This document shows, piece after piece, positions 4,745 through 62,570 of a DNA stretch of 64,000 bases (position 1 is the stretch's first letter; each line of letters begins with the position of its first letter). The notes below the pieces were generated by a model that was not told the DNA's origin, ran no database searches, and saw nothing but the letters and a program-made list of their open reading frames with translations. The stretch is from Methanobacteriota archaeon (GTDB lineage Archaea; Thermoplasmatota; DTKX01; VGTL01), in NCBI GenBank assembly GCA_016874675.1, contig VGTL01000003.1, forward strand, positions 11,346-75,345, read 5' to 3'. The position numbers and the translations under genes were made by a program.

Positions 4745-4748
4745 GGGG

Positions 4749-5693: not shown

Positions 5694-6359
<666 letters not shown>

Positions 6360-12163: not shown

Positions 12164-12335
12164 GGGGCAGCAGGCAGCGGGCAGCGGTGGGGCAGCGGGC
12201 AGCGGGCAGTGGTGGGGCATCGGGCAGCGGGCAGCGGCTGCAGGGGGGCGTCCGTCGTCCCCGCTGCCTGCTCCCCGATGCCCGATGCCCCCCTGCTGCC
12301 CGCTGCCTCTTCCCCCCACCGCAAAGTGCAAAAAT
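12164..12335. repeat. Composite palindrome: (GGGCAGCG)n ... spacer ... (CGCTGCCC)n.
   Basis: gggcagcgggcagcggtggggcagcgggcagcgggcag ... ctgcccgctgcctcttcc, immediately 3' of purH. Confidence 0.7.
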
Positions 12336-26037: not shown

Positions 26038-26039
26038 AG

Positions 26040-36300: not shown

Positions 36301-39300
36301 TCCTGCGCCAGTCCAGCGAGGCCCGGCGGCTGATAGGCTTCTGCGAGCGCAAAATCGACTCGGCGCGCCATATCGGCGCCGATGTCTCATCGGCGGAGGC
36401 CCTCCTGGCCGAGGCCCGGGCCGCCACGGAGAAGCGGGTCTTCGTGAAGGCCTTCGAGCTCGCCACCCAGTGCCTGCGGCAGATAGACAGCATGCAGCAC
36501 GCCGTCGTGCTGGGGTACCTCACCGACAGCGAGCTCCAGCTCGCCGAGATGGAGGAGGCGGGGGCCGACATCGCCGAGGCCCAGGAACTGATAGAGATCG
36601 CCATCGAGGCCCTCAACGAGAGCGAGTTCGAAAAATCCATGGAGCTCGGCCGCCAGGCGGTCGAGACCGCCCGGGGCAAGATGTCCCAGCACGAGCTGGC
36701 CGCCGAGAGGGTCCGGGAGCTCGAGCGCAAGATGAAGGACGCCACGGAGCTGGGCGGGGACCTGCGCTCCATCGAGAGGCTGCACTCCGAGGCCCGCTCG
36801 GCGCTCCAGTCCCACGACCACGCCCGCCTGGAGGCGATCGCCGGCGAGGCGCTGGAGGCGATGGTCGGCTCCCTCCACGAGCTGGTGGCCACCCGGACCG
36901 CCGAGGCCTCGGCGGTCATCTCGGGCGTCGAGGAGATAGGCGCGGCCGTGGCCAGGGCGCGCGACCGCCTGCTGCGGTCCCGGCGGGCGCTCGAGTGCGA
37001 CGACTTCAAGACGGCCCTCAACCTGCTTGAGGAATCCCAGAGCGCCGCGGGCGCCGCCCGGCTCAGGCACGCCGAGACTCTCGAGGGCGTCAAGGGGCTC
37101 CAGAACATGGCCCGGGAGGCCTCCGAGCTGGGGCTGGACGTGTCGCGGGCCCGGTGGGCGCTGGCCGAGGTGGACGAGGCCATCGACGAGGGCCAGTACG
37201 ACCAGGCCGACCGCATAATCTCCGAAACGCGCGCCGAGCTGGAGAAGGGCTACCTCAGCCACGCCGAGCAGGCGCTCGCCCGGACGGAGGAGGCGCTGGT
37301 CAAGACCCGGGAGCTGGGGGCGGACGTCGGGGCCGAGGTGAAGGCCCTGGCCGAGCTGCGCGTCATCTTCTCGCAGGGACGCTACCAGACGGTGATGAAG
37401 TCGTGCCGGGAATGCCGGCGCAGGCTGGACGAGAGGCTCAACGAGCACATCGCCGGGATCATCCTCCGGGCCGAGAACCTCATAAACGAGGCGGGGAAGG
37501 TGGGGGTGGACGCCCGGGAGTACCGGGAGACCCTGGAGCGCTCCGAGGAGACCGTCAGCGAGGGCGACTACGAGGCGGCCCTCCGTTTGGCCAGCGAGGC
37601 CATCGACCGGACCCGGGCGCTCCTGCGCAGCTCCATATCGGGAACGATATCGACCCTGGGGGGGCTGATAGAGGAGTCGCGCCGCATCGGGGCCGACGTC
37701 CGGGAGGTGGAGGAGTACTCCCGGCAGGCGCTCTCGGCCCTGCAGAAGGACGAGTACGAGCTCGCCCACGACCACGCCCTCTCGGGCATCGCGGCGGTGG
37801 ACCGCGTCCGGGAGGAGTTCATCGTCCGCCGCAGGCAGGAGGTCGAGCGCAAGATCTCCGAGGCCGAGGCGATGGGGGCCCAGGTGGAGGACTTCCGCCG
37901 CTCGACGGCCAAGGCCCAGGAGTTCCTGGAGAGGGCGGACTTCGAGAAGGCCGCCCTGCTGCTTCAGGAGACGGAGGAGAACACCCTCAAGCGGCAGTCG
38001 CGCGTGGCCGAGGAGAGCATCCGCCGGGCCGAGGAGCAGCTCGCCAAGGTGAAGATGGACATAGACCTGGCCCGGGCCCGCTCGCTCCTCGACGAGGCGC
38101 GCAGCGCCCTGGGATACGGGGAGTTCGAGGAGGCGGTGGACTACTCGGTGCAGTGCGTGGAGGAGACGAACCGCGTCCAGGCCCAGTTCGTCGAGGAGGT
38201 GATCGGCACCACGGAGGAGACCATCGCCGCGGCCGCCCAGATGGGCGCCGACACCCAGAAGGCGCGCGAGCTCCTCGACTACTCGCGCGCCGACCGGGAG
38301 GCGGGCAACTTCGACGCCGCCCTGGCGAAGGCTGTGCAGGGGGCGGAGGAGGCCGAGCAGGCCCAGTACGACTTCGTGCGCGGGCCCATCGAGCACATCC
38401 GCCGGGTGATGAAGGAGGCCCGGCTCTCCGACGACAGGATAAAGCGGCTGATGGCGGCGGCCGAGGGGCACCTCGAGAAGAAGGAGTACCAGGAGGCCCG
38501 CCGGGAGGTCATGCGCGCCATGGACCTCACCGGGGAGATCCAGGAGAAGCTCGCCCGCAAGGAGATAATGGACTCCGAGGAGGTCGTGGCCGGGGTCGAG
38601 AAGGCGGGGGCGGTCTCGCCCGTCGCCCGCAACCTGCTCCGGAGCGCCCTGACCGCCATCAACGCCCGCGACTTCGAAAAGGCCATGAAGTTCTCCCGCG
38701 AGTGCTCCGTTCAGGCCATGAAGACGCGCGACGAGTTCGCCTCCGCCCAGAGGGCCCAGACTGCGGCGGAGGCCGAGATCGCCACCCTGAACGAGCTGGG
38801 CCTCATGACCGAGGAGACGGGGGACCTTCGGGACCTCTCGAGGTCCGGGTTCTCCTCCGGCGATTACATGAAGTCGAAAGAGTACTCCGCCCAGGTGGTC
38901 CACAAGGCGGAGTCGCTCTACTTCAAGGCGGCCGGAGAGGCCCTCTCCTCGTCCCAGTTCAAGATAAACTACGCCAGAAACATCGGGGCGGACGTCAGCA
39001 CGGCCGAGAGCCTGCTTCGCGACGCGAAGGCCGCAAACGAGTCCCGGGACTTCCGCCGCACCCTCGAGCTCGCCCGGCGCTGCCGAGAGGAGGCCGAGAG
39101 GGCCAAGGAGCGCTACAAGGAGCTCGTGGACACCATCTACTCCGCCGAGTCGAAGATATCGGTCGCCCACACCTACGGCCTGGACACCTCCGCCGCCGAG
39201 CGGCTGCTCTCGATGGCGGTGGCCCAGAAGTCGAAAAACGGCGAGGAGGCCCTCGATTTCGCCCGCCAGAGCATGGAGGAGGTCCAGCGGGCCCTCGAGA

Positions 39301-39824
39301 GGTTCACCCCCGACATCAAGGTCGAGATAAAGCTCGAGGGGGTGCTCCAGAAGGAGCGGTGGAGCCAGGCCTCCCTGACCATCTCGAACACCGGGAAGGC
39401 GACGGCCAAGGACATCTCCGTGCGCTTCAGCGGCGACCTCGAGGTGCAGGGCGGCGAGCGCGTGAGCGTTCTGCGCGGCGGGGAGAGCCGGAGGCAGTCC
39501 GTGCGGGTCCGGCCCTCGAAGGGCGGGGACCTGCCCCTGGGAACGAGCGTGGTGAGCTTGAGGGAGTTCGACGACAAGGAGTTCCGGTCACAGGAGACGC
39601 GCTGGATCCGCGTGGAGGACGCCACACCCCTGGCGACGCCCCTCAACCAGTTCGTCACCAAGTCCGTGAGGTGCCATATCTGCCTGGGCACGATAAAGTC
39701 CGGGCTGCCCCTCGTGCGGTGCGAGTGCGGCAAGACCTACCACGAGACCTGCGCCTCGCGCGTGGGGGAGTGTCCCAACTGCGGGCGGGACCTGCATAAC
39801 GTCGGCCCGGGCGGGGGGGGCTGA
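30339..39824 (+). CDS. Giant (3161 aa) alpha-helical repeat protein: about 40 tandem copies of a 65-75-aa unit, a beta-rich domain, then a C-terminal C4HC3 RING-variant/PHD-like zinc finger. Candidate E3-like scaffold.
   Basis: Repeat core G-[AV]-D-[VT]-x3-A-x2-LL-x2-A-x2-A-x4-[DE]-[YF]-x2-A-x2-LA, for example GADVSRARELLERAAAMFAARNYDDAMALV. C-terminus CHICLGTIKSGLPLVRCECGKTYHETCASRVGECPNCG fits C-x2-C-x12-C-x-C-x4-H-x2-C-x6-C-x2-C. Translationally coupled to the E1 gene. Confidence 0.7.
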   Translation: MKGRFDALKYAKSLEKQLSADPRKKRLQDDVARLQSRLADEGRKGADVSGLERLLSDASSAVEGGDLGLAEELVSRAEKGLSGLGALSVEEAIARARRAAEDVGMLGLDNVRALELIGQAEDAIRKKDHRSARKLAVASQKEAETALEGSVQDALPYAEGLVSECERCGMDVSGLRGRLSAVRELLGKREYNAALQECTTLVEDIEPARKSFFRERLARAGESVERAREGGRDVSALEGSLARARRLLDLKDFEGACEALGEVEAATGAAAAPAGPPGPGPEAPPDEVEEASGVLSELRSAIAAGTKMGLDLKAETARVPEVEGLLKAGDGRGAAAVGRQVLAKVRERQKALSGSAIASLEDEVARLRKGGASVAPAQKVLEQASERLRAGSHEEAFALARRAVDELDALREGMAGYAEAMSRCKGLLKDAAGSRLDCTLAEPLVEEARAAAARGEYLAAAGKLAEALGLLEDAMAGRAAGGLRRALELVSRADEEGTDLEDVERLALDGLAFEESGEGGRLGEVAATIERLAGSRARSSMMARDALDRAGETMAEAMMEMLDVSDETRKVGLAGEALQRGEYEDARFLAEDVAPALRQRCREALDQSISKAASMVEELGQSGAEMPRAREYLRRSRELAECGRFGLGHSYALQAVQEARAVGDRFREAQDARAAVEAMLESATALGVPREDLEAALSEVSSAIEVRAYERAVAAGAAGLERGEERFAREARALEAGLSELLSSLRKLPIDGSAGAAALKAARGHLGKAEHAEAISALRGPTESLSRARRQYEDSAAALEAALARLSEAEGYGLDVSEIRPDLEAASRAHSSGAYDEGFRLARTALELGEHLISERAAQAMGELRDLLESTERAGTVLDDLHERVGALSGCFSSKAFGGLFKEAVAIRAEIGRRRARHSEAVTAIQGIQAAIEEVKAMGADLSPTEDLLGLARFASERGSYDDVLDYSRRAQSELTAAAGSSVDRQREALAARIARHAGEGVELRACRNALLANPGLLPDGGFRAVLADLKRIETDMEVRRDQHRNTQKVLAAAESRLTEAGSLGVNTADASRLLESARGASSAGDYPKAVELAEQARDIAARSTESHQQTMGAMELARAHLRDAESMGADIARARELLERAAAMFAARNYDDAMALVVESETDILHSQETLVGDTMDLARSTLDEAQKIGADTNGAMELLGRAESARQARDFGPAFALARESYESAQEERSRHSTALGALSEIQEMVQKAQAEGVRVERLVKELEHAREALQRFDYEGCTGTAERVRMQAEECIGAATQARRALERCEAALRTATEMAAQTNEGEGLLLRCREQYQAGEYRAALSTAGTCHERLAAAQHRQVWGELGQLVLELDDAEDAGAELSAAWGLAEEAGLALAGGDFPSALLRTRAARTRLAEATHAFEGISSVMLASRLIVDEARFMEADVAVASDLSAGAQSELRAGNYHGTQELALQAAEEATRNQRSLLNQLISTADRAVSEAAGWGIRSRLAVDRLARSRTAMEFQDFKGARDLLEECDDALAQAITDHKGVSDRMAQLTESLVRAEALGLDPAPVRKGAAEAETLAARGEYSRALEALGDLSRELAAAERTLVSDRLEQSRLALEEALAQGVFIADAARAIEGARGALESGQFQSALELAAEASRTVENNRQEHRRVTAIVMELSSEIECGKELGVGVPDSPAVLSGARELLSRGEFAQAEEQARRGRAAVASALTGAMQGNLSALEEELREAERQGVRSAVAAGLLKGADRDLRSRSYSEMIGHIEEARRELAAARRAREQIQRTLESMGERLKETEALGADGEAASALVGRAMEVSSEGDYAQALELLGEADLAVEAAQRVRVEEALSGASALVEEGDAIGADTRAAHKALAGARKALEGRDYRGTSGLAREALEEAERRVGEHRRSIETVAVSEKTLADAESEGLNVERLRRVLEEARRSLRKHDYPAVAEAAARIDREVGTLLRQSSEARRLIGFCERKIDSARHIGADVSSAEALLAEARAATEKRVFVKAFELATQCLRQIDSMQHAVVLGYLTDSELQLAEMEEAGADIAEAQELIEIAIEALNESEFEKSMELGRQAVETARGKMSQHELAAERVRELERKMKDATELGGDLRSIERLHSEARSALQSHDHARLEAIAGEALEAMVGSLHELVATRTAEASAVISGVEEIGAAVARARDRLLRSRRALECDDFKTALNLLEESQSAAGAARLRHAETLEGVKGLQNMAREASELGLDVSRARWALAEVDEAIDEGQYDQADRIISETRAELEKGYLSHAEQALARTEEALVKTRELGADVGAEVKALAELRVIFSQGRYQTVMKSCRECRRRLDERLNEHIAGIILRAENLINEAGKVGVDAREYRETLERSEETVSEGDYEAALRLASEAIDRTRALLRSSISGTISTLGGLIEESRRIGADVREVEEYSRQALSALQKDEYELAHDHALSGIAAVDRVREEFIVRRRQEVERKISEAEAMGAQVEDFRRSTAKAQEFLERADFEKAALLLQETEENTLKRQSRVAEESIRRAEEQLAKVKMDIDLARARSLLDEARSALGYGEFEEAVDYSVQCVEETNRVQAQFVEEVIGTTEETIAAAAQMGADTQKARELLDYSRADREAGNFDAALAKAVQGAEEAEQAQYDFVRGPIEHIRRVMKEARLSDDRIKRLMAAAEGHLEKKEYQEARREVMRAMDLTGEIQEKLARKEIMDSEEVVAGVEKAGAVSPVARNLLRSALTAINARDFEKAMKFSRECSVQAMKTRDEFASAQRAQTAAEAEIATLNELGLMTEETGDLRDLSRSGFSSGDYMKSKEYSAQVVHKAESLYFKAAGEALSSSQFKINYARNIGADVSTAESLLRDAKAANESRDFRRTLELARRCREEAERAKERYKELVDTIYSAESKISVAHTYGLDTSAAERLLSMAVAQKSKNGEEALDFARQSMEEVQRALERFTPDIKVEIKLEGVLQKERWSQASLTISNTGKATAKDISVRFSGDLEVQGGERVSVLRGGESRRQSVRVRPSKGGDLPLGTSVVSLREFDDKEFRSQETRWIRVEDATPLATPLNQFVTKSVRCHICLGTIKSGLPLVRCECGKTYHETCASRVGECPNCGRDLHNVGPGGGG

Positions 39825-39864
39825 GGGAATGCGGGCACGGGGCGGAGCGAGGGGGCCGAGCCGC

Positions 39865-39905
39865 TACATGCCAGGGACAAAAAGTAAATATAAGGAAATG
39901 CGAAT
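39865..39905 (+). promoter_or_regulatory. AT-rich promoter-like element upstream of the Ub-like gene.
   Basis: caaaaagtaaatataaggaaatgcgaatatgg, a TATA-like taaatataagg in GC-rich context. An aggggt RBS-like sequence precedes the ATG at 39981. Confidence 0.4.
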
Positions 39906-39980
39906 ATGGTTGCCGTAAAGGGTACAAAGCGGAGGTTTTGACGGACTACGGCCTTGCTCGGCTGCGGGAAAGGGGTATTG

Positions 39981-40223
39981 ATGACCACCAGGGTGACGAT
40001 AAAGGACGCGGACACCGGCAGCAGGATCGAGATGGACCTTGAACCGGACAACACCATCGAGGAGACCATCGAGAGCGCCGCCAGCTACTGGGAGAAGGAG
40101 GCCGGGGCGTACGTCCTCCGCTGCGGCAAGAGGGTGCTCCGCGGTCAAATCACGCTTGCCGAATCGGGGATCCGAGAGGGCGATGTCCTGGAGCTCATCC
40201 CCGATCCCGAGGGCGGAGCGTGA
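39981..40223 (+). CDS. Small ubiquitin-like beta-grasp protein (80 aa) ending ...PEGG-A.
   Basis: MTTRVTIKDADTGSRIEMDLEPDNTIEETIE...VLELIPDPEGGA. Ubiquitin-like in length and pattern, with a C-terminal diglycine followed by one extra residue. Confidence 0.6.
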   Translation: MTTRVTIKDADTGSRIEMDLEPDNTIEETIESAASYWEKEAGAYVLRCGKRVLRGQITLAESGIREGDVLELIPDPEGGA

Positions 40224-40390
40224 GAGCCCCCTTGGCCGTCGCGCTGGGCCGGGGGAGGGGAGAGGGAACCGGGGTGCTGGGTCGGACCGGGACGGGCCGG
40301 TCCCGTGAAGGGGGGGTGTGAGGAACGCCGCTTCCCAAGGAGATACTTCGAAGGAGGCTCCAGAACGAGATAGCCCAGGTCCGCCGCAAG

Positions 40391-40873
40391 ATGATCCACA
40401 CCATCGTGGTCTCGGACCCCACTTTCAGCACGTTCCCCGTGGAGATAAAGGTCACGCTGCGCGGCGTGCCGGGGCCCATCCTTCGCGACGGCAAGGTCTC
40501 CCACAAGTTCACCCACAAGTTCACGATGGAGATCACCGATGACTATCCCTATCACAAGCCCATAGTGAGGTGGGAGACGCCGGCGTTCCACCCCAACGTG
40601 ATGCTCCCCGAGGACGGCGGCTACGTGTGCACGCGCCTTTTAGACGAGTGGGACTTCAACTCGACGCTGCTCACCTTCTTCAAGGGCATAGAGTCGCTTC
40701 TGTCCAACCCCAATCCCGCCAACCCGTACGGCACGGACAGCTGCACCCGCGCCGCCGAGTACTTCAACAAGCACCCCTACAAGCCCCCCGAGATAGTCCA
40801 GTCCGCCAAGAAGGCGCCGCGGATACTCGGGGACCGCAACGAGCCCGAGCGGGCGGGCGACCCGGGCGGGTGA
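40391..40873 (+). CDS. E2-like ubiquitin-conjugating enzyme (UBC fold).
   Basis: HPN motif and catalytic Cys in ...WETPAFHPNVMLPEDGGYVCTRLLDEWDFNSTLLTFF.... The upstream in-frame sequence LRRRLQNEIAQVRRK resembles the UBC N-terminal helix, so the true start may lie upstream at 40322-40390. Confidence 0.65.
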   Translation: MIHTIVVSDPTFSTFPVEIKVTLRGVPGPILRDGKVSHKFTHKFTMEITDDYPYHKPIVRWETPAFHPNVMLPEDGGYVCTRLLDEWDFNSTLLTFFKGIESLLSNPNPANPYGTDSCTRAAEYFNKHPYKPPEIVQSAKKAPRILGDRNEPERAGDPGG

Positions 40874-40916
40874 GCCCAACGGCCGAAGCGTCCGCGACAT
40901 CGGGGGTGCAGTAGGC

Positions 40917-41858
40917 TTGTCGGACCGGCCCAAGATCGTCGCCGAGAGGAAGCGCCGGGCCCGCGAGATGAAGCCGCCCCAGGACTTCATCATCCACGAG
41001 TGGGGGAAGCCCTACGCCGGCATAGAGGTCTACATATCCCAATTGGCGTTCGACAAGATGATGAAGCAGTGCTCTCTCTACGCCAAGCGCCACCTCGAGG
41101 CGCTGGGCTACCTGGTGGGCGACTACTGCCGGTGGAAGAACAAGGAGTACACCATAGTCGAGGACGCCGTGACCTCGGACCTGGACACCACCTCCGTGTC
41201 GGTCCACTTCCAGGCCTTCGAGAAGGCGTTCGACCAGCTGGACCGGATAGACTTCGACTACGTCCTCGTCGGCTGGTACCACTCCCACCCGGGCCACGGC
41301 TGCTTCATGTCCCAGACCGACATATCGACGCAGAAGCGGATGTTCAACAAGTCGTTCCACCTAGCGATAGTCATCGACCCCATCAACAAGGAGTTCAAGG
41401 TCTACAAGATGGACGGCCCGGTGCCGGAGGAGAAGGTCTTCGGGATATACCGCAACCTCAACGGCGAGGGGCCTCCCTCCCTGGAGGTGCACGGGCCCGG
41501 CGCGGAGGGCTATGCGCCCTACGGGGACCGGAACTCGACGCCGGCCTACGAGCCCGGGTCGGCGCCCCGCGGGGGGGCCGCCCGGGCCAAGGCGGCCGCC
41601 CGCACCGAGGCCGAGCGCATCGCCCGCGAGCGCGAGAGCCAGCGCCGCTCCCGCGAGCGCGCCGCCGAGAGGACCCGGCTCTTCAGCACGGCGCTGCTCC
41701 TCTTGCCGCTCTTCTTCGCGGCTTTCGGCGGGGTGCTGGGCTTCGCCCTCGCGTTCCAGAGGGACCGCGTGGCGGCGTGGGTCATCCTGGCCGTCGGCGG
41801 GGTCATGACCGTCCTCTGGGCATTGTGGGCGGCGGCGGGACCGCCGTTCATTGGGTAG
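40917..41858 (+). CDS. JAMM/MPN+ metalloprotease (Rpn11/deubiquitinase-like) with a C-terminal membrane anchor.
   Basis: Exact JAMM motif GWYHSHPGHGCFMSQTDI (H-S-H-x7-S-x2-D) with an upstream Glu. C-terminal hydrophobic helices LFSTALLLLPLFFAAFGGVLGFALAF and VAAWVILAVGGVMTVLWALWAAAG. Confidence 0.75.
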   Translation: MSDRPKIVAERKRRAREMKPPQDFIIHEWGKPYAGIEVYISQLAFDKMMKQCSLYAKRHLEALGYLVGDYCRWKNKEYTIVEDAVTSDLDTTSVSVHFQAFEKAFDQLDRIDFDYVLVGWYHSHPGHGCFMSQTDISTQKRMFNKSFHLAIVIDPINKEFKVYKMDGPVPEEKVFGIYRNLNGEGPPSLEVHGPGAEGYAPYGDRNSTPAYEPGSAPRGGAARAKAAARTEAERIARERESQRRSRERAAERTRLFSTALLLLPLFFAAFGGVLGFALAFQRDRVAAWVILAVGGVMTVLWALWAAAGPPFIG

Positions 41859-41859
41859 A

Positions 41860-42002
41860 TCGGCTCGGGGGACGTGTTGTTGATATCGGTTAGGGGGACT
41901 TGTTTTTCCTGTCGGTGAATGGAAGACGGCGGTAGAAAAACGAATGTACTTGTTCTCGTCTACCCCCTACCCGATCTCACCCGCACGTCCCCCGAACCGA
42001 TT
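41860..42002. terminator. Long imperfect inverted repeat between the convergent JAMM and leuB genes. Likely a bidirectional terminator.
   Basis: Arms cggctcgggggacgtgttgttgatatcggttagggggac and gtctaccccctacccgatctcacccgcacgtcccccgaaccg flank a T/A-rich centre (cttgtttttcc ... gaaaaacgaa). Confidence 0.4.
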
Positions 42003-44959: not shown

Positions 44960-45136
44960 TCAGCGCTTCTCGATGAGCTCGACGAGCGTCCCGTCCGGGT
45001 CCTCGACGAAGGCTATCTCGGCCCGGTTCTGGGGTATGGGCCGTCGGCTGGCCAGCCTCATGCCGAGGAAAGCCTCGTAGAAACGGATGGAGCGCTCCAG
45101 GTCCGAGCTCCTTACGGATACATGCGCGAAAGTCAT
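44960..45136 (-). CDS. Small VOC/glyoxalase-like domain protein (58 aa, single beta-alpha-beta-beta-beta module).
   Basis: MTFAHVSVRSSDLERSIRFYEAFLGMRLASRRPIPQNRAEIAFVEDPDGTLVELIEKR. Confidence 0.4.
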   Translation of the reverse strand: MTFAHVSVRSSDLERSIRFYEAFLGMRLASRRPIPQNRAEIAFVEDPDGTLVELIEKR

Positions 45137-45168
45137 CCGGCCACCCCGGGCGAGATGCCTTAACCGGC

Positions 45169-46722
45169 CTAATAAAGTGCCGGCGGGGGAGTCTGGGGGG
45201 CCGCGGGCGGGGATCTGCGGCCTTCCCACTTAAGCAAGAGCTCCACGGCGTACTTTCCCGAGACGATGCAGCCCGGGACGCTTCCCCCGGGCGTGGCCCA
45301 CTGCCCCGCCATGCAGAATCCGGAAAGGCCGGGCAGGGTGATGGGGAGGCTCTTCGTGACGAGCTCGGGCGTGATGAGCCAGCCTCCCCAGGCACCCTCG
45401 TGGTTGAGCGTGTAGCGCCAGGTGGTGCAGGGGGTGGCGACGTCGGTGAGCTCCACACTGGCCCCGATGCCCGGATAGACCCGCCCGAGCGTTTGGAGGA
45501 TTGCGGCCGCGGCGTCGCGCTTCTCCATTTCATAGAGCGAGATGTCCTTTTCCAGGAGCTCCTTCCAGGGCCCCCATTCCGTCTCGACCATGGCCTGCAG
45601 GACGGACCTGCCCTCCGGGCAGAACCCTCCCCGGCGGTCCATTATCCTCCAGGAAAGCGCCCCAACCGGCCTCCCGGCCACCCGCAGGGGGCTCGCCAGC
45701 TGCAGGAACGAGAAGTGCGGCTCTCCCTCGAAGGTCCTCGCCAGGCCATAGCTGACAGTCAGCAGTGGGCGCACGGTCTTCCACCCGGCGTACCGTTCGC
45801 GGACGGCCCGGCCGGCGTATTTCCCTTCCAGCATGGAGAAAATGGTGCTGCGGCCGTCGGCGGCGGATATCACATAATCGGCCCGGCGCTCGGCCCCGTC
45901 CCGCAGCCTCACGCCCAAGGCGCGACCGCCCTCGACCATTATTCGCTCGACGGTGCTCCGGAATACCATCTCGCCGCCCAACGAACGATACTTTGCCTCC
46001 ATCCCGCCGATGAAATCCCGGCAACCGGTCCGGAGCAGGGACATCCTTCCGTCCGCGAGCAGGGCGAGCGTCATCATGATGAACCAGACCGGCACCTCCG
46101 GAAGGAAGAGCGAGCGGAAAAGGTCCCTCAGCACGGGGGAGCGCAGCCCCCCGGCGAAATCACCGACCGGGCGGGCGTACCGCCCGGCCAGGTACCTGAG
46201 CAGGCGGCGCATCTTCCACATGGCCCAAAGGCCGTCCAGCGTCCCGGCAAGCTCCGGTGGCCGGAAAGACTCGATAAGGCCCATGTCGACGCCCCTGAGG
46301 GCCTTGGCGCCGTCGATGAACCAGTCGACCTGAGCGGCGTCTCCCGGTGAGATCCCCCGTAGGTCGGTCCGTAGCCGGTCCAGGTCGCCGGTGGTGTCGA
46401 TGCGGGTCCCGGTGGATTCGTCGGTGAATCGCCCCAGCCCGTCCATCCGCGAGAGGCTTCCGGGCCCGAGCGCACCCACCTCCCGGTAGGCCTCGAGCCC
46501 CCCGCCGTCCATTATGAAATGGATGCCGTCGTCGATAACGTACTGCCCGCGCCTCCACCAGGCCGCCACCCCGCCGGCCCTCGTGTGGTGCTCGAGGATG
46601 GTCGCCTCCAGGCCGGCGAGGCGGGCATATATCCCGGCCGAAAGACCGGCTATCCCCGCCCCGATGATGATCACCGAGGCGTGGCCCGGGCGCCCCTTTC
46701 CGGCCCGCCGGGGCGGCGGCAC
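45169..46722 (-). CDS. FAD-dependent oxidoreductase (phytoene desaturase/CrtI-like amine oxidase family).
   Basis: N-terminal dinucleotide-binding VIIIGAGIAGLSAGIYARLAGLEATILEHHTRAGG. Length and pattern as for CrtI-like enzymes. Confidence 0.7.
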   Translation of the reverse strand: MPPPRRAGKGRPGHASVIIIGAGIAGLSAGIYARLAGLEATILEHHTRAGGVAAWWRRGQYVIDDGIHFIMDGGGLEAYREVGALGPGSLSRMDGLGRFTDESTGTRIDTTGDLDRLRTDLRGISPGDAAQVDWFIDGAKALRGVDMGLIESFRPPELAGTLDGLWAMWKMRRLLRYLAGRYARPVGDFAGGLRSPVLRDLFRSLFLPEVPVWFIMMTLALLADGRMSLLRTGCRDFIGGMEAKYRSLGGEMVFRSTVERIMVEGGRALGVRLRDGAERRADYVISAADGRSTIFSMLEGKYAGRAVRERYAGWKTVRPLLTVSYGLARTFEGEPHFSFLQLASPLRVAGRPVGALSWRIMDRRGGFCPEGRSVLQAMVETEWGPWKELLEKDISLYEMEKRDAAAAILQTLGRVYPGIGASVELTDVATPCTTWRYTLNHEGAWGGWLITPELVTKSLPITLPGLSGFCMAGQWATPGGSVPGCIVSGKYAVELLLKWEGRRSPPAAPQTPPPALY

Positions 46723-47334
46723 TCAGGCGCCTCCCTTGCGGCCCGGGCGGGCCAGCCCGTCCAGGGCGATCTCCGCCGCGGCCTTGAAGGCCGGTTCCAG
46801 TGGGAATCCCTGCGGATCTGCAGCATGCTGGATGAAGAGGCCGTCGCACAGCGCGATGAGGGACGCGGCGGCGTTCTCGAGCCTCCCCGCCGGCCGGCGC
46901 AGGGCGCGCGAGAGGGCGCGGGCCACCACCCTCCGGTACTCGGCGTAGATGCCCACGACATGCCTCACCAGGCGGGATTCGGAGAGTATCTGCCCCTCGA
47001 ACGTCATCGTCGAGTAGAACCGGGCGATCTTTGGGTTCTCGGCGTAGAACCGGGCGTTGAGCTCGAAGAGCGACCCGACGACCTGCGGGAGCGAGGACGC
47101 GCCCTCGAGCGGTTCCAGGACCGCCCTCCGGTAGGCGTCGGCGGCCTCCAGCGCGGCGGCCAGGTAGAGGTCACGCTTGTCCCGGAAGTGCCAGTACATC
47201 GCGCCCTTGGTTGTGCCGGCGGCGCGCGTGACGTCGTCGATGGAGGCGGCGTGGTAGCCCCTCTCACCGAACACCTCGCGGGCCGCCTCCAGTATGCTCC
47301 GTCTCGTCGGGGACCTGCCGCCTTTCATGCCCAT
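46723..47334 (-). CDS. TetR-family transcriptional regulator.
   Basis: SILEAAREVFGERGYHAASIDDVTRAAGTTKGAMYWHFRDKRDLY is a TetR HTH. It is upstream of, and co-directional with, the FAD oxidoreductase. Confidence 0.7.
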   Translation of the reverse strand: MGMKGGRSPTRRSILEAAREVFGERGYHAASIDDVTRAAGTTKGAMYWHFRDKRDLYLAAALEAADAYRRAVLEPLEGASSLPQVVGSLFELNARFYAENPKIARFYSTMTFEGQILSESRLVRHVVGIYAEYRRVVARALSRALRRPAGRLENAAASLIALCDGLFIQHAADPQGFPLEPAFKAAAEIALDGLARPGRKGGA

Positions 47335-47436
47335 ACTAAACGGTCGGTATGTCATTAATGCTTTCGGCGCGGAGCCGATCCGGAGCGTGCCCCGGGGCCC
47401 AAAACCTATTAATGGCCGGTCCGGCAATGACCTTTC

Positions 47437-48549
47437 GTGCTCTGCCTGGGCCTCGAGAGCACCGCGCACACCATCGGCGCCGGCGTCGTCGACGGGAGGT
47501 GCCGGGTGCTCGCAAACGAGCTGGAGTCGTACGTGCCGCCGGAGGGGGGCATCCACCCGAGGGAGGCCGCCAACCACCACGCCGAGCGCGTGGTGCCGGT
47601 CATTCGGGCGGCCGTGGAGAGTGCCGGCGTGCGGTTCTCCGAGCTGGACCTCGTCTCGTTCTCCCAGGGGCCGGGCCTGGGTCCCTGCCTGCGGACCGGC
47701 GCCACGGCGGCGCGCTCGCTTGCGGTCTCGCTGGGATTGCCCATCATCGGGGTCAACCACTGCATCGCCCACCTGGAGATCGGCCGCGGCGCCACCGGCG
47801 CCCGGGACCCGGTCCTGCTCTACGTCTCGGGCGGGAACACGCAGGTCATCGCCTACATGGCGGGCCGCTACCGGATATTCGGCGAGACCCTGGACATCGG
47901 CGTGGGGAACCTTTTGGACAAGTTCGGCCGGGGCATGGGCCTGGCCTTCCCGGCGGGGCCCAAGATAGAGAAACTTGCCCTGGAGTACGCCGCGCAAAAC
48001 GAATCCGGGGGCCGGGTGCCGGGGGCCGGGTCGCCAAGCCCGTCGCCCGGCGCATCGATCGTCACCCGGCCCCCGGCACCCGGCCCCGTCCCGGCCCCCG
48101 GCACCCGGCACCCGGCACCCGGCTACCTCCCATTGCCCTACTCGGTCAAGGGAATGGACATCTCGTTCTCCGGGATACTCACGGCCGCGGAAGTGAGAAG
48201 GCGCGAGGGCGTGCCCGTCCCGCAGCTTTGCTTCTCGATGCAGGAGACGATCTTCGCGATGCTGGTGGAGGTCACCGAGCGCGCGATGGCCCACGTCGAG
48301 AAGGACGAGGTGGTCCTGGGCGGGGGCGTGGCGGCCAACGCCCGGCTGCGCCAGATGCTGGGACGGATGGCGGCCGACCGGGGCGCCAGGATGTTCGTCC
48401 CGGAGAAGCGCCTCTGCATCGACAACGGCGCGATGATCGCCTGGCTGGGCATCCTCATGCACCGGTCGGGCGTCCGGATGCCAGTCCGGGGGACCCGGAT
48501 TCGCCAGCGGTTCCGCACCGACGAGGTGGAGGTCGCATGGCGCGATTGA
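47437..48549 (+). CDS. kae1: tRNA N6-adenosine threonylcarbamoyltransferase Kae1, carrying a roughly 35-aa Pro/Gly-rich in-frame insertion.
   Basis: MLCLGLESTAHTIGAGVV...VNHCIAHLEIGR...LLYVSGGNTQV... The insertion ESGGRVPGAGSPSPSPGASIVTRPPAPGPVPAPGTRHPAPGY is encoded by a repeat element. Confidence 0.9.
   Translation: MLCLGLESTAHTIGAGVVDGRCRVLANELESYVPPEGGIHPREAANHHAERVVPVIRAAVESAGVRFSELDLVSFSQGPGLGPCLRTGATAARSLAVSLGLPIIGVNHCIAHLEIGRGATGARDPVLLYVSGGNTQVIAYMAGRYRIFGETLDIGVGNLLDKFGRGMGLAFPAGPKIEKLALEYAAQNESGGRVPGAGSPSPSPGASIVTRPPAPGPVPAPGTRHPAPGYLPLPYSVKGMDISFSGILTAAEVRRREGVPVPQLCFSMQETIFAMLVEVTERAMAHVEKDEVVLGGGVAANARLRQMLGRMAADRGARMFVPEKRLCIDNGAMIAWLGILMHRSGVRMPVRGTRIRQRFRTDEVEVAWRD
48020..48130. 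repeat. CCGGCACC-unit composite palindrome inserted in-frame within kae1.
   Basis: ccgggggccgggtgccgggggccgggtcgcc ... cccggcacccggccccgtcccggcccccggcacccggcacccggcacccggc. The same CCGGCACC unit array recurs intergenically at 56995-57045. Confidence 0.65.
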
Positions 48550-49193
48550 GGAAGGGCGCAAGGCGCATGGCGCAAGGCGCCGAGGCCGAGCTCCGCCTGG
48601 TGGACTGGATGGGCCGGAAGGCGGTCGCCAAGCGGCGGGTCCCCAAGCCCTACCGCCTCCCGGAGCTGGACCGCGCGCTGCGCCAGTCGCGCACGAGGCT
48701 CGAGGCGCGGCTTCTGCGCCTAAGCCGCCTGGCGGGCGTCCCGGCCCCGCTGGTCTACGACGTCGACCTCGCCGACGACTCCTGCACCCTGACCATGGAG
48801 TTCATCGCGGGCGAGCAGGCCAAGCGCCTGCTCAACCGCCTCCCGCTCCCGGCGGCCCGCAGGCTCTCGCGCCAAATCGGGGAGGCCGTCGGGAGGCTCC
48901 ATACCGGCGGAATAGTCCACGGCGACCTCACGACCTCGAACATGCTCCTGAGCGGCGGCACCCTCTACTTCATCGACTTCGGGCTGGGCGCAGCGACCGG
49001 GGAGCTCGAGGCCCAGGGGGTCGACCTGCGCGTGCTCAAGGAGGCCTTCGGCAGCACCCACGCCCACATCGGCCGGTGCTTCGACGACATGATGGCCGGC
49101 TACCGGGCCGCCTACCGAAGCGGCGCCGAGGCGGAGAGGCGCCTGAGGGAGATAGAGGGCCGGGGCCGCTATTCGGACCAGGTGGAAGGATGA
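48537..49193 (+). CDS. bud32: Bud32/PRPK-like atypical serine kinase (KEOPS subunit).
   Basis: ...GAEAELRLVDWMGRKAVAKRRVPKPYRLPELDRALR...HTGGIVHGDLTTSNML...LYFIDFGLG.... The start overlaps the kae1 stop. The first codons run through a GCGCAAGG repeat fragment. Confidence 0.8.
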   Translation: MARLRKGARRMAQGAEAELRLVDWMGRKAVAKRRVPKPYRLPELDRALRQSRTRLEARLLRLSRLAGVPAPLVYDVDLADDSCTLTMEFIAGEQAKRLLNRLPLPAARRLSRQIGEAVGRLHTGGIVHGDLTTSNMLLSGGTLYFIDFGLGAATGELEAQGVDLRVLKEAFGSTHAHIGRCFDDMMAGYRAAYRSGAEAERRLREIEGRGRYSDQVEG

Positions 49194-50828: not shown

Positions 50829-51713
50829 ATGGGCGGACGGGGAACAGGGAGCAGGGGGCAGGGGGCAGGGGGCAGAAGGCGGAGGGCAGGGGGCGCTGAG
50901 CGGGCGCGAGCGGAGAGGCAATATCACATCGCGCTCTCGCCGGGGGAGCTTGCCGAGCATGTCCTGCTTTGCGGGGACCCGGACCGGGCGGCCCGGGTGG
51001 CCTCCCGCTTCGACGAGGTGCGATTCGAGCGCCGCCACCGCGAGTACATCACGTTCACCGGCAGGTGGGAAGGCGCGGACCTCTCGGTGATGTCGACGGG
51101 CATCGGGCCCGACAACACCGAGATAGCCGTCATCGAGATCTCCCGGGTGTGCCGGCGCCCCACGCTCATAAGGATAGGCAGCTGCGGGGCGCTGCAGGAA
51201 AGAATGAGGCTCGGCGACCTCGTGATCTCGGCCGGCGCGGTCCGGCTCGAGAACACCTCGACCTTCTTCGTCCATGAAGGGTACCCGGCCGTCTCCGACT
51301 GCGAGGTCCTGCTGGCGCTGGTCGCGGCCGCCGCGCGCAGGGGGCACCGCCACCACGTCGGGCTGACCGCCACGGCGCCCGGCTTCTACGGCGCCCAGTG
51401 CCGGGCCGTCGATGGCTTCCCTCTCAGGCGGCCGGGCCTCATCGGCGAGCTCGCCGCCCAGGGCGTGCTGAACTACGAGATGGAGACGAGCGCACTGCTG
51501 ACGCTGGCCTCCCTGCGCGGCCTGCGCGCCGGGGCGGTGTGCGCGGTCTTTGCCCACCGGCCGTCGGGCCGGTTCATCGACGGCAGGGACATCCCGCGCG
51601 TCGAGGCCCGCTGCATCGAGACGGGGCTGGAGGCGGTGCGCGTCCTGCGCCGGATGGACGAGGTGAAGCGGGCCGCCGGCGCGACCAGGTGGACGCCGGA
51701 GATGAGGATATGA
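50829..51713 (+). CDS. Purine/uridine nucleoside phosphorylase family (PNP_UDP_1) enzyme.
   Basis: ...QYHIALSPGELAEHVLLCGDPDRAARVASRFDEV...ITFTGRWEGADLSVMSTGIGPDNTEIAVIEI...NYEMETSALLTLA.... The N-terminal roughly 30 codons are Gly/Arg-rich and encoded by a GGGCAGGG repeat array. Start uncertain (GTG 50814 or ATG 50829). Confidence 0.65.
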   Translation: MGGRGTGSRGQGAGGRRRRAGGAERARAERQYHIALSPGELAEHVLLCGDPDRAARVASRFDEVRFERRHREYITFTGRWEGADLSVMSTGIGPDNTEIAVIEISRVCRRPTLIRIGSCGALQERMRLGDLVISAGAVRLENTSTFFVHEGYPAVSDCEVLLALVAAAARRGHRHHVGLTATAPGFYGAQCRAVDGFPLRRPGLIGELAAQGVLNYEMETSALLTLASLRGLRAGAVCAVFAHRPSGRFIDGRDIPRVEARCIETGLEAVRVLRRMDEVKRAAGATRWTPEMRI

Positions 51714-51714
51714 G

Positions 51715-51835
51715 GGAAGGGGAGCGGGCAGCGGTGGACGACGGGGGCCGCTTCGTCACCGCTCCCCGCTGCCCGCTGCCCGCTCCCCTTCCCATTGCCC
51801 CGTGACCCGTGCCCCTTGCCCCTTGCCCGGTGCGG
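51715..51835. repeat. Composite palindrome (GGGCAGCG ... CGCTGCCCGCTGCCC, plus CCCCTTGCC units).
   Basis: gggaaggggagcgggcagcggtggacgacgggggccgcttcgtcaccgctccccgctgcccgctgcccgctcccc. Confidence 0.7.
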
Positions 51836-51836
51836 T

Positions 51837-52319
51837 CTATTTCTTGTACCCGATCTTCCGCAGAAACTCCCGTCGCTCCCTGACATCGGCGTCGGTCTCG
51901 AGGCCCCGGCTCCTCTCGCCGTCGATGACGCCCAGGATGCCCCGGCCGCGCTCGTTTTGGGCGATTATCACGTCCACCTCGTTGGCCGTGGCGCAGATGA
52001 TTTGGCAGACCTCCGGAACCTCGCGCAGGGCGCGCAGGATGTTGATGGGGTAGGCGTCCTTCAGGGCGATGAAGAAGGTGTGGCCGGCCGAGAGTGCCAG
52101 GGCGTTCTTCGCCGCTATCCTCTTCATCTCCTCGTCGTTGCCCTCGACGCGCACCAGGCACTTCGTGGAGGCCTCGCAGAAGGCCACGCCGAACCTCGAT
52201 TGCGGCACGGCGTTCACCACCGCCTCGTAGACGTCCTCGGCGGTCTTGATGAAGTGGGACTGACCTATCACTATGTTCAGGCCCTCGGGCTTCTCTATCC
52301 TCACGCTGGCTAGCTCCAT
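51837..52319 (-). CDS. Small conserved archaeal protein resembling the adenosine-specific kinase family (PF04008-like).
   Basis: MELASVRIEKPEGLNIVIGQSHFIKTAEDVYEAVVNAVPQSRFGVAFCEAS.... Family assignment is from memory only. Confidence 0.35.
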   Translation of the reverse strand: MELASVRIEKPEGLNIVIGQSHFIKTAEDVYEAVVNAVPQSRFGVAFCEASTKCLVRVEGNDEEMKRIAAKNALALSAGHTFFIALKDAYPINILRALREVPEVCQIICATANEVDVIIAQNERGRGILGVIDGERSRGLETDADVRERREFLRKIGYKK

Positions 52320-56274: not shown

Positions 56275-56988
56275 ATGAAGGAGAAGGTCGTCCGGCTCCA
56301 GGACCCGCGCGCGGTGGTCTACGGGGCCGAGAGGCTCTCCCTGCTCGCCCGCCTCCGGGAACGGGCGGAGGGCATCGGCCGGGCGCTCGGCCAGGGCTGG
56401 TACGTGCACGGTTCCATCGCCCGCGGGGACGTGAAGCGGGGCAGCGACATCGACCTCGTGTTCCTCGAGGGCGCGCTCGCGTCGTTCGAGGTCGAGTCCC
56501 GGCTGGAGCGCGCCGGCCTCCACTGGACCTCGCGCGAGGTCGTGCTGGCCACGCCCATGAGCTCCCCCAAGGGGCACCTTCACCTGGACGAGGAGGCGAC
56601 CGTCACGTTCCCGCTTGCCGGCTTCCGCCCGCAGGAGGAGGCGTTCTACAGGTTCGGGGGCCTGCTCCCCGCCCGGGGGCTGGCCGGGGCGCCGAGGGTG
56701 CCGGGCGTGAGCAAGCGACTCCTGCTCGTCATGCCCACCCCGGAGGGACACGTCGAGAGCTCCATCCTGGGCCGCGAGGCCGAGACCGCCAGCATTCTGG
56801 GCGTCCCGGTCGACGTCGTGAACGAGCGCGTGCGCGTCCTGGGCCGCCGGGACAGGATAGGCCGGACGGGCGTGTACCTGCGGGAGGAAGTTGCCGACCG
56901 GAGCTCGCTTGAGGAGACTCTCAGGTTCATCCAGGACCGCGACCCGGTGGTGCGCCGGGCGGCGGGCGGCCGGGGGAAACGTTCCTAG
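56275..56988 (+). CDS. Pol-beta-superfamily nucleotidyltransferase domain protein.
   Basis: GQGWYVHGSIARGDVKRGSDIDLVFL is the G[SG]x9-13Dx[DE] NTase motif. Confidence 0.6.
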   Translation: MKEKVVRLQDPRAVVYGAERLSLLARLRERAEGIGRALGQGWYVHGSIARGDVKRGSDIDLVFLEGALASFEVESRLERAGLHWTSREVVLATPMSSPKGHLHLDEEATVTFPLAGFRPQEEAFYRFGGLLPARGLAGAPRVPGVSKRLLLVMPTPEGHVESSILGREAETASILGVPVDVVNERVRVLGRRDRIGRTGVYLREEVADRSSLEETLRFIQDRDPVVRRAAGGRGKRS

Positions 56989-56994
56989 CTACGT

Positions 56995-57045
56995 CCCCCG
57001 TCCCCCGTCCCCCGGCACCCGGCACCCGGCACCCGGCACCCGGAT
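56995..57045. repeat. Tandem CCCCCGT x3 plus CCGGCACC x4 array. Same unit as the kae1 insertion.
   Basis: cccccgtcccccgtcccccggcacccggcacccggcacccggcacccgg. Confidence 0.65.
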
Positions 57046-57461
57046 CAGGCCCCGCTGCCGGCCCTCTCCTTCAGGAGCGCCAGGAAGGAGGGCAGGTCCT
57101 CCACCGTCCGGCAGCCGCCCCCCGCCAGTCGCCGGAGCCGCGACCATATGAAGTCGTCGGATTCGACCCGGGCGTCCCGGAGCAGGCGCACCAGGCGGTC
57201 GTGGAGCTCCACGCCCTTGCGGTCCCAGTCCGTAAGGACGATGACCTGCCGGTACCTGCGGGAGAGCGCGTCGGTCCGGTCGACCAGGCTCTTTCCGCGG
57301 TTGAGCTTGACCACCTCCCCCTCGAGGCCCAGGGCGCGCAACGCCCCAACGTCCCGCTTGCCCTCGACCAGGACCGGGGATTCCAGGTTCGCCGCGCAAA
57401 GGCGCCCGAGCAGCTTCTCGAGCTCGTCGAGCTCGCGCTTGCGGTCAGCCATCCCTGCCAC
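57045..57461 (-). CDS. Small Toprim-domain protein.
   Basis: ...VLVEGKRDVGALRALGLEG...VIVLTDWDRKGVELHDRL... is a Toprim E...DxD pattern. Confidence 0.5.
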   Translation of the reverse strand: MAGMADRKRELDELEKLLGRLCAANLESPVLVEGKRDVGALRALGLEGEVVKLNRGKSLVDRTDALSRRYRQVIVLTDWDRKGVELHDRLVRLLRDARVESDDFIWSRLRRLAGGGCRTVEDLPSFLALLKERAGSGA

Positions 57462-60173: not shown

Positions 60174-60174
60174 T

Positions 60175-60265
60175 GCTGGGTGCGGGGAGCGGGGTGCAGG
60201 GGGACGGACGCGGCCACACGCCCCCGCACCCAGCCCCCTGCACCCCGCACCCGGAGGCGGAGCGT
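60175..60265. repeat. Self-complementary GGTGCGGGG ... CCCCGCACC palindrome.
   Basis: ggtgcggggagcggggtgcagggggacggacgcggccacacgcccccgcacccagccccctgcaccccgcacc. Confidence 0.6.
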
Positions 60266-62399: not shown

Positions 62400-62570
62400 C
62401 GATATTATTGTGAGAATAGGGCAGCAAGGCAGGAAGGCAGAAGGGCAGCAAGGGAGGGCAGGAAGGCAGCAAGGGAGGACGGCCGTCCCCCTCCAGCCAT
62501 CCCTCCTTCTTGCTCCCTTGCTGCCTTGCTGCCTTGCTGCCTTGCTGCCTTCCCGCCTCATATCACAAAC
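62400..62570. repeat. Composite palindrome (GGCAGCAAGG/GGCAGGAAGG ... CCTTGCTGCC).
   Basis: gggcagcaaggcaggaaggcagaagggcagcaagggagggcaggaaggcagcaaggg ... cccttgctgccttgctgccttgctgccttgctgccttcc. Confidence 0.7.

Follow-up and report, generated by a model that had tools for sequence, protein, structure and literature searches.

According to the passages that two reviews devote to them (PMC2229807, PMC10969869), the Rickettsia palindromic elements (RPEs; Ogata et al., 2000) are dispersed hairpin repeats that stand in frame in conserved genes and are tolerated there. PMC2229807 also cites an archaeal precedent, the palindromic repeats of Methanocaldococcus jannaschii that have coding potential (Suyama et al., 2005). 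In Xanthomonas and Nostoc, G-rich heptameric simple sequence repeats (SSRs) of the type GGGNATC occur at many loci, with variable copy number and near stop codons (PMC4692102), and the tandem repeats of Borgs create disordered protein regions (PMC9879509). We analysed a stretch of 64,000 nt from a Methanobacteriota archaeon (assembly GCA_016874675.1, contig VGTL01000003.1, positions 11,346 to 75,345; hereafter the window), in which the tRNA-modification gene kae1 contains 126 bp of extra, hairpin-forming DNA. With a probability of roughly 60%, we regard this DNA as a copy of a lineage-specific dispersed hairpin repeat, the D-type of a family of 'array-armed hairpins'. In members of this family, a G-rich heptamer arm on the 5' side and a complementary C-rich arm on the 3' side enclose a short core that is rich in GACG/CGTC. 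In the genome of the window they mostly occupy the space just past stop codons.

Apart from the extra DNA, the gene looks canonical, as a first-pass annotation made from the letters alone had stated. In a structure-sequence search its open reading frame (ORF) matched Kae1 of P. abyssi (2ivn) over nearly the full length (E=3.5e-115). It also matched 28 further chains, mostly Kae1, TsaD or Qri7 with some TsaB/YeaZ paralogs, and the solved structures matched include the Kae1 chains of M. jannaschii and T. acidophilum. The TsaD domain PF00814 is present in close homologs. An ortholog search of 5.8 billion proteins led to a clade of uncultured relatives, and 25 orthologs, with the window protein among them, were aligned. 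All invariant columns of this alignment are retained by the window Kae1, including the HCIAH and DNGAM motifs and the residues H108, H112, D329, N158 and R165; the roles of the metal-binding and insert-I residues are taken from the literature (PMC11621456, PMC8565320).

Every structure alignment of the window Kae1 falls into two blocks, query residues 1-181 and 229-369, which correspond to residues 1-179 and 184-325 of the 2ivn chain. Because of this split, ~47 query residues lie opposite only 4 in the crystal structures, which leaves about 43 extra residues. The nearest relatives (P0001-P0004; 328 aa, 88-91% identical outside the loop) read KLALE-NTAG-YLPLPYSVKG at this site, whereas the window protein reads KLALE-YAAQNESGGRVPGAGSPSPSPGASIVTRPPAPGPVPAPGTRHPAPG-YLPLPYSVKG, with the extra residues between E183 and Y230. 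Hence, the expansion is specific to the lineage, and an earlier estimate of roughly 35 aa was too low. The coordinates first given for it, 48020-48130, missed the start of the left arm at 48005. The gene and the parts of its extra DNA are as follows.

47437..48549, plus strand: kae1 (tRNA N6-adenosine threonylcarbamoyltransferase), 370 aa, intact, with a match to PDB 2ivn
47986..48123, plus strand: expanded loop Y184-G229, 46 aa long where the nearest orthologs have 4; protein and codon alignments put the net gain at 42 aa or 126 bp
48001..48031, plus strand: G-rich arm, GAAT followed by (CCGGGGG CCGGGTG)x1.9, encoding E-SGGRVPGAG; period 14 with 100% matches in Tandem Repeats Finder (TRF)
48032..48063, plus strand: hairpin core or loop, with the junction motifs CCGTCGCCCGGC and GATCGTC
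48064..48088, plus strand: first copy of the C-rich arm, complementary without mismatch to 48008-48031 (24 nt, 100%)
48089..48123, plus strand: second copy of the C-rich arm, CGTCCCGG CCCCCGG CACCCGG x3, encoding PGTRHPAPG; a tandem duplicate of the first copy with a period of 25 nt

The extra DNA is a self-complementary composite palindrome, which confirms the observation of the first-pass annotation that a repeat palindrome stands in frame in kae1. TRF recognises CCGGGGG/CCGGGTG x3.7 in the left arm (48005-48031) and CACCCGG x9.1 on the right side (48063-48123), the latter also as two copies of a 25-nt unit at 96%. A repeat search found a perfect 24-bp inverted repeat joining 48008-48031 with 48064-48087; an alternative pairing of 29 nt at 93% joins 48005-48033 with 48087-48115 and uses the second C-arm copy. 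These arrays show slippage, a duplication of the right half and perfectly matched arms. The predicted RNA fold of the loop has an energy of -89.6 kcal/mol, with z = -3.65 relative to dinucleotide shuffles. With mononucleotide shuffles its z is -4.8, and the loop DNA of four relatives gave z values of -0.9 to +0.2. CGTC stands immediately before each C-arm copy (CCGTCGCCCGG, GATCGTCACCCGG, CCCGTCCCGG), and the junction plus C-arm occurs three times in this hairpin, whose core is longer than the canonical D-type core. The length of the insert is an exact multiple of three, and there is no in-frame stop.

The same arm unit recurs outside genes, as the first-pass annotation had also seen, and there it lies between two convergent genes.

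56950..57044, no strand assigned: intergenic D-type hairpin with the same arm unit as the kae1 copy; C-arm (CGTCCCC)3(CGGCACC)4.7

Here, the coding sequence of a gene for a nucleotidyltransferase-domain protein contains a degenerate G-arm at its 3' end, and the stop codon of this gene falls in the hairpin loop. The C-arm array, with (CCCGGCA)x4.7 at 57011-57043, extends up to the stop of the convergent gene for a Toprim-domain protein. Allowing at most one mismatch, the 15-mer CCGGCACCCGGCACC occurs 10 times in the window, always at the kae1 locus or at this one, against an expectation of 0.03. The likeness goes beyond the arrays. The segment 48038-48054 of the Kae1 core, which belongs to no array, agrees in 16 of 17 bases with 56951-56967 when the latter is read in reverse complement, and this is the best match of the segment in the 64 kb. 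Both copies also share the junction of CCCCGTCCC with the C-arm array.

These two loci belong to a larger family. The window has a GC content of 68%, and against dinucleotide-preserving shuffles it contains 26 arrays of period 7 (0.9 expected) and 6 of period 8 (0.1 expected). There is no comparable excess at periods 4-5 and 9-12, and the excess at period 6 is modest (9 versus 2.2). Most of the arrays are paired in inverted orientation, the pairs folding as hairpins 80-180 nt long, and at least 11 hairpins of like architecture were counted, which is a lower bound.

12150-12330, no strand assigned: stop-codon-associated hairpin, (GGGCAGC)n - GGGGGGCGTCCGTCGTCCCC - (GCTGCCC)n, starting at the first base after the purH stop (12164..12310)
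20795-20920: stop-codon-associated hairpin
23205-23400: stop-codon-associated hairpin
26035-26170: stop-codon-associated hairpin
51714-51790: stop-codon-associated hairpin
56940-57055: stop-codon-associated hairpin (the D-type copy at 56950..57044)
60160-60265: stop-codon-associated hairpin
62405-62570: stop-codon-associated hairpin
5485-5660: hairpin in a divergent 5' spacer
22545-22690: hairpin in a divergent 5' spacer
47995-48135: hairpin inside kae1

Eight of these hairpins begin 0-28 nt past a stop codon or end 1-6 nt ahead of a convergent one; arm starts lie 0-28 nt downstream of the stops of seven genes, and arm ends 1-6 nt ahead of two convergent stops. The arm units vary by locus (GGGCGCA, GGGCAGC, GGGTGCC, GGGTGCA) and remain within 1-2 substitutions of GGGYGCN. 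In the window together with the related contigs L088, L134, L153, L177, L178, L132 and L114, a G-rich array precedes a C-rich one in 24 adjacent pairs, and the reverse order was found in none. The insert in kae1 shows the same polarity, from a 5' G-arm to a 3' C-arm. Since a palindrome reads alike on both strands, this polarity is a true property of the element and not a matter of strand choice. It recalls head-to-head telomere fusions, or an arrangement whereby transcription from either side yields G-rich RNA first. The cores between the arms contain GGACG/CGTCC in 18 of 24 cases, a 6-fold enrichment, and taken together GGACG/CGTCC, GACGA and ACGAC are enriched 6- to 8-fold, so that the cores are in effect short (GAC)n...(GTC)n mini-palindromes. 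We also considered the absence of stops in all frames as a trait of the family. However, 46 of 60 frames were open compared with a background of 64% in GC-rich DNA, which is not distinctive. In an Rfam search of the entire window, tRNA was the only family found, and none matched the hairpins.

A possible older relative of the family lies at 41859-42000 of the window and at L001:3930-4131, in the convergent spacer between a JAB gene and an Iso_dh (isocitrate/isopropylmalate dehydrogenase-family) gene. Inverted repeat units of 26-35 nt occur at both loci, with additional 9-nt units in L001, around GGGGGACGT / ACGTCCCCC; their position is kept in both.

Beyond the window, two kinds of recurrence have to be distinguished. 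When metagenome contigs were scanned for exact matches to (CCCGGCN)x4.7, arrays of at least 4.7 units were found in more than 116 contigs (L091-L206), a lower bound. These contigs differ widely in GC content and origin, and among the matches listed, most are single arrays in unrelated sequence with no inverted partner. (CCCGGCA)n is thus a recurrent heptamer microsatellite well beyond the lineage of the window, and because it arises in many unrelated contigs, identity of the arm unit is by itself weak evidence. The full hairpin architecture with kae1-type arms was found, among the matches listed, in ~8 contigs (L134, L153, L177, L178, L132/L182, L200, L137), which also hold other arm types of the window (AAGGCAGC, GGCGCAA). 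Of these, L134 is archaeal: it encodes MCM and an A24 peptidase domain of archaeal type.

In these contigs, D-type hairpins of the form (CCGGGKG)n-CCGGGAAATGACGCGTCCGT-(CCCGGCM)n stand at L134:8680, L153:8426, L177:678, L177:5548 and L132:443. The five copies have a near-identical, asymmetric 25-nt core (CCGGGAAATGACGCGTCCGTCCCGG) in unrelated flanks; the core occurs in both orientations, and two copies lie on the same contig, L177. With the same arms and a near-identical core at unrelated sites in both orientations, the D-type hairpins are a dispersed repeat family. The Kae1 copy is in register with them over the G-arm and over the left terminus, which reads GAAT|CCGGG as in L134, L177 and L132. 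The terminus RAAT|CCGGG recurs in four D-type copies, and the entire element is an inverted repeat, as the terminal inverted repeats of a miniature inverted-repeat transposable element (MITE) would be. A canonical D-type core would put a TGA in the frame of Kae1. The 31-nt core of the Kae1 hairpin had no exact match in the metagenome contigs, and a tblastn search of the ORFs of the hairpin contigs against the window found no genes in common and thus no orthologous filled and empty sites. The claim of the first-pass annotation that the family is mobile or expandable is supported in so far as the family is both dispersed, with near-identical D-type hairpins at unrelated sites, and expandable, with arms that show slippage and tandem duplication. 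Its description of the Kae1 insert as direct evidence of mobility goes too far: the evidence for dispersal comes from the other copies.

The hairpins turn over rapidly. The related contig L001 is syntenic over ~17 kb and its Kae1 is 88% identical, yet its 21 kb contain no 7-mer arrays at all. The convergent spacer between the genes for a PNP and an adenosine-kinase-like protein measures 1 bp in L001 (14273-14275), compared to ~126 bp of hairpin and C-rich arrays together in the window (51714-51840), an instance of rapid gain or loss. A further in-gene case comes from L088, where the large subunit of an aconitase-family enzyme (4489-5955, minus strand) carries a 45-aa in-frame insert at 5610-5738. 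The insert has precisely the extent of a (GGGTAWA)n / (TWTACCC)n hairpin, and it is absent from L001, L086, L089 and the window. Its G-arm overlaps ancestral-looking GVK..RV(L/W) codons, and RVW stands on both sides of the insert. Given the aconitase insert, in-frame capture by housekeeping genes is recurrent in this lineage. A 22-aa insertion elsewhere in the Kae1 of P0030 was rejected as another example: it contains neither array nor hairpin, and the genome of P0030 has no arrays. In the window, the nucleoside phosphorylase gene appears to start within a (CAGGGGG)n array, which lies at 50829-50894 in the apparent N-terminus (MGGRGTGSRGQGAGGRRRRAGG...); its true start codon is uncertain.

Apart from one lineage-specific N-terminal insert, the Kae1 loop is the sole internal position at which the 25 orthologs vary in length. 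Several lineages have gained +6 to +19 aa, and P0017 has gained ~+40 aa of unrelated, non-hairpin sequence, whereas unrelated archaea have a short loop. The first-pass annotation had described a tolerated surface-loop insertion, and had noted that insertions of similar length and unrelated composition in orthologs from unrelated archaea would point to an ancestral loop. The loop indeed tolerates changes in length; yet it is not a neutral random loop, but a hot spot of this clade at the end of insert I. An unrelated insertion of similar length does exist within the clade (P0017, ~40 aa), while the loops of unrelated archaea are short. The loops of P0017, P0015 and P0011 were considered as decayed elements, and in none of them was a hairpin significant (z -0.8 to +0.2). 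In a bootstrapped neighbour-joining tree, the window sequence grouped with the short-loop P0001-4 in 86% of replicates and fell outside them in 6%, the five sequences being close to a star.

The more distant P0011 (83% identical over 316 gap-free columns outside the loop) complicates this picture. It shares the G-arm peptide SGGRVPGAG with 5 synonymous and 0 non-synonymous differences over nine codons, and its loop equals that of the window minus 30 aa of core and C-arms. Because the shared peptide differs only synonymously, part of the 'insert' may predate the rest. Recombination with a P0011-like allele was considered as a source of SGGRVPGAG and gained no support, since the flanks are nearer to P0001 and P0002.

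When residues are numbered after the aligned M. jannaschii protein, the loop comes after helix two of the Kae1-specific insert I, at its C-terminal end. Insert I sandwiches the adenine of threonylcarbamoyl-AMP (TC-AMP), reads the 36-UAA-38 motif of the tRNA and contacts A37/A38 through N156, Q160 and R163, and according to the KEOPS literature it is part of the Bud32-binding surface (PMC8565320, PMC11621456). Located at the end of insert I, the extra residues therefore adjoin functional surfaces. AlphaFold2, run on a shallow alignment, gave residues 191-226 a predicted local distance difference test (pLDDT) score below 50 with neither helix nor strand, next to a flanking helix at 173-190. Since the length is a multiple of three and no in-frame stop occurs, the loop is most likely translated, as a predicted disordered segment of 42 residues rich in Pro, Gly, Ala and Ser that would leave the catalytic fold intact. 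Predicted tryptic peptides from this region are VPGAGSPSPSPGASIVTR, PPAPGPVPAPGTR and HPAPGYLPLPYSVK. From the conserved flanks and the length variation among relatives, we infer that the insert is probably neutral.

How, then, might the insert have arisen? Our working model joins copying with growth in place. A core-bearing element would have been copied at the DNA level from another element into a G-rich, heptamer-like stretch that pre-existed in the Kae1 loop. Heptamer slippage and arm-to-arm template switching would then have made the arms specific to the locus while keeping them perfectly complementary, and selection would have acted only as a filter that let pass in-frame, stop-free insertions with a peptide that the protein tolerates. 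Within a mixed body of evidence, copying is suggested by the dispersed D-type copies with a common core, by the family core that is absent at empty sites and by the shared left terminus. Several observations weigh against it. The Kae1 core differs from the canonical D-type core; neither Kae1 nor the D-type copies show an evident direct repeat that could represent a target-site duplication (TSD); the aligned copies share no clear terminal motif on the right side; and Pfam scans of 30 ORFs of the 64-kb window found no transposase, RAYT-like or Y1 gene. The codons for YAAQ (47986-47997), to the left of the hairpin, are also extra and are not accounted for by the model, and the recurrence of (CCCGGCA)n in unrelated high-GC contigs weakens arm identity as evidence. 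The peptide shared with P0011 and the overlap of the G-arm with ancestral-looking sequence in both in-gene cases (Kae1 and the L088 aconitase) favour at least some growth in place. For the protein, the AlphaFold2 model is weak overall, with a mean pLDDT of 68.9 and equally low values at residues 113-151.

An alternative is an origin entirely in place, in which a G-rich, heptamer-like stretch of the loop was expanded by replication slippage, copied in inverted orientation by fold-back or template switching and then duplicated, with nothing imported. The likeness to other hairpins would then arise because one mutational process, specific to the lineage, worked on similar GC-rich seeds. The seed could be the stretch that P0011 retains, and in the L088 aconitase the unit GGGTAWA matches the local ancestral codons GGG GTA AAG / AGG GTA TGG. 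Array units that differ by 1-2 bases between loci, with gradients within arrays, the lack of both TSD and transposase in the window, and the repeated rise of (CCCGGCA)n elsewhere agree with it as well. We nevertheless consider such an origin rather unlikely. Near-identical D-type elements with an asymmetric 25-nt core at unrelated loci and in both orientations are hard to fit with independent genesis, and the GACG/CGTC-rich core is missing at empty sites, yet common to different arm types and contigs. Moreover, with the window nested among short-loop relatives, the seed would need several independent losses. A more speculative and somewhat less probable proposal is that the hairpins are an undescribed archaeal repeat class, neither MITE nor plain microsatellite, in which a lineage-specific process adds or expands G-rich 7-8-nt repeats at the 3' end of a strand, as might be exposed at a stalled fork or a break, with subsequent fold-back synthesis via a (GAC)n/(GTC)n mini-palindrome. 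If true, this would account for the 24-to-0 polarity, the shared core and the G-arms that overlap pre-existing sequence, and the same process would also remodel essential proteins in frame (Kae1, aconitase, Bud32 and a nucleoside phosphorylase). Alternatively or additionally, the polarity could be selected, if G-rich RNA made first from either side acts as a bidirectional terminator by R-loop or G-quadruplex formation.

Repetitive arrays do break assemblies, and contig L087 ends inside one; in addition, the exact window Kae1 is not in the large protein collection, nor its loop sequence in the metagenome contigs. An artefact of assembly or sequencing, or an inactive kae1 copy backed by another, is nonetheless very unlikely. 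A chimeric join cannot place a repeat between correctly ordered, in-frame gene halves, the stop-free length is an exact multiple of 3 with all invariant residues kept, the operon context with bud32 and ham1 is conserved, and an independent contig from another sample shows the like insert in aconitase (L088). An ordinary variable loop, that is, old Pro/Gly-rich coding sequence whose likeness to repeats is a by-product of 68% GC, would agree with the clade-wide length variation and with the ~40 extra residues of P0017, which lack a hairpin. However, at such divergence neither an inverted repeat of 24 bp nor tandem units of 14 nt could be old and still perfect, the segment is absent from the nearest relatives, the 15-mer is far more frequent at its two loci than expected, and architecture, polarity and core motifs match the hairpin family. 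These features make an ancestral loop highly improbable. Finally, the insert might never reach the protein, if it is removed as an archaeal bulge-helix-bulge intron, as an intein or by ribosomal bypass. Bypass elements are known from T4 gene 60 and as the yeast mitochondrial 'byps', and the very stable hairpin, with identical GGC codons near both ends, resembles them. Yet the stem is predicted to run through without a break, and it lacks a 4-bp helix flanked by 3-nt bulges; 42 aa is far below the size of an intein, whose splicing blocks measure at least about 130 aa, and intein motifs are absent; Rfam gave no match; and part of the peptide is kept by P0011 under apparent purifying selection. 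Since the insert is in frame and free of stops, removal is also needless, and we hold it to be the least probable of all. Copying of a D-type element followed by remodelling of its arms thus remains our preferred reading of the kae1 insert.

Immediately downstream of kae1, the gene order kae1-bud32-ham1 is syntenic with L001, and the junction of the first two genes carries an array of its own.

ATG at 48537, plus strand: bud32, overlapping the kae1 stop; ham1 is next downstream
48551..48580, plus strand: short (GGCGCAA)x4 array where kae1 adjoins bud32, inside the first codons of the latter

With this array, the N-terminus of Bud32 reads MARLRKGARRMAQ- in the window versus MAEVSGTLIGR- in L001, and its true start codon is uncertain. 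In the relatives L087 and L088, larger arrays occupy the same junction, directly after the kae1 stop. Just upstream of kae1, synteny with L001 is lost (45002-47346). Only the first 45 residues of a glyoxalase gene are left there (45002-45136), and in place of the GT2, DUF2064 and radical-SAM genes of L001 the window has two minus-strand genes, one flavin amine-oxidase-like (45169-46722) and one for a TetR regulator (46723-47346).

Two observations elsewhere in the window deserve mention. A ubiquitin-like cluster at 30228-41858 is conserved with L001, L086, L088 and L089 and encodes a giant protein of ~3200 aa, a YukD-like small protein of 80 aa, an E2-like UQ_con protein and a JAB peptidase. 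The YukD-like protein is 100% identical to that of L001, while its neighbours are 85-94% identical. At 6450-6556 (plus strand), Rfam reports a tRNA over 107 nt (48 bits) that ARAGORN does not report, probably an intron-containing archaeal tRNA.

Kae1 makes t6A37 (N6-threonylcarbamoyladenosine at position 37), a universal and usually essential tRNA modification. A tolerated, disordered insert of 42 residues in this enzyme, if real in the protein, gives a measure of how much the Kae1 machine can absorb, and it offers a natural construct for probing the role of the insert-I loop. The repeat family itself is apparently undescribed in its combination of heptamer-array arms, a GACG/CGTC core, strict polarity, fast turnover and in-frame entry into housekeeping genes. 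It may be seen as the counterpart, in a high-GC archaeon, of the Rickettsia 'selfish DNA in protein-coding genes', and as a tractable case for how repeats that form non-B DNA arise, spread and create protein segments. In a full-text literature search on arrays of heptamers or hairpins, such elements were not found described for Thermoplasmata or for other archaea.

Compared with the systems introduced above, the hairpins show partial likenesses in several directions. With REP/REPIN (repetitive extragenic palindromic) sequences and MITEs they share that they are short, non-coding, hairpin-forming dispersed repeats, mostly after genes, and that filled sites differ between related genomes. In contrast, no GTAG-type REP head appears in the aligned termini, neither a RAYT nor a transposase was found in the window, and no TSD was detected. 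Their arms are, moreover, internally repetitive and evolve in concert. The heptameric SSRs resemble them as over-represented tandem GGGNNNN heptamers within about 50 bp of stops that are capable of forming G-quadruplexes. However, SSRs are single direct arrays, whereas the hairpins described here are inverted pairs of 80-180 nt around a conserved core and occur in coding sequence as well. Borg repeats are likewise fast-evolving archaeal tandem repeats, both intergenic and in ORFs, that add disordered low-complexity peptide. Their units are A-rich and divisible by three, whereas ours are G/C-rich units of 7 or 8 nt in inverted pairs. Because the 7-nt unit is not a multiple of 3, the peptide has a period of 7 aa per 21 nt.

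The M. jannaschii elements, compared here by description and therefore a lead, are also archaeal repeats with open frames that are fused into protein genes. Reportedly, they are AT-rich conserved sequences and not heptamer arrays. The RPEs are the closest functional analogue. Like the hairpins of the window, they are dispersed elements of ~100-150 bp that form long hairpins, both intergenic and in frame inside conserved or essential genes. The host protein of an RPE presumably tolerates the peptide it gains, as the window Kae1 would, and no mobilising enzyme is known for either kind of element. Yet RPE copies have a conserved sequence and a conserved peptide, whereas the arms of our hairpins are 7-8-nt tandem arrays with a unit that varies by sub-family or locus, combined with strict G-arm to C-arm polarity, a GACG/CGTC-rich core and a high-GC archaeal host. 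Given the heptamer arrays and the composition of 68% GC, homology to RPEs is very unlikely, and they serve as an analogue only. To judge from these comparisons, none of the systems joins heptamer-array arms, a conserved GACG/CGTC core and strict polarity. The kae1 hairpin is thus best viewed as a variant of the RPE- and MITE-like in-frame palindromes, with a different architecture.

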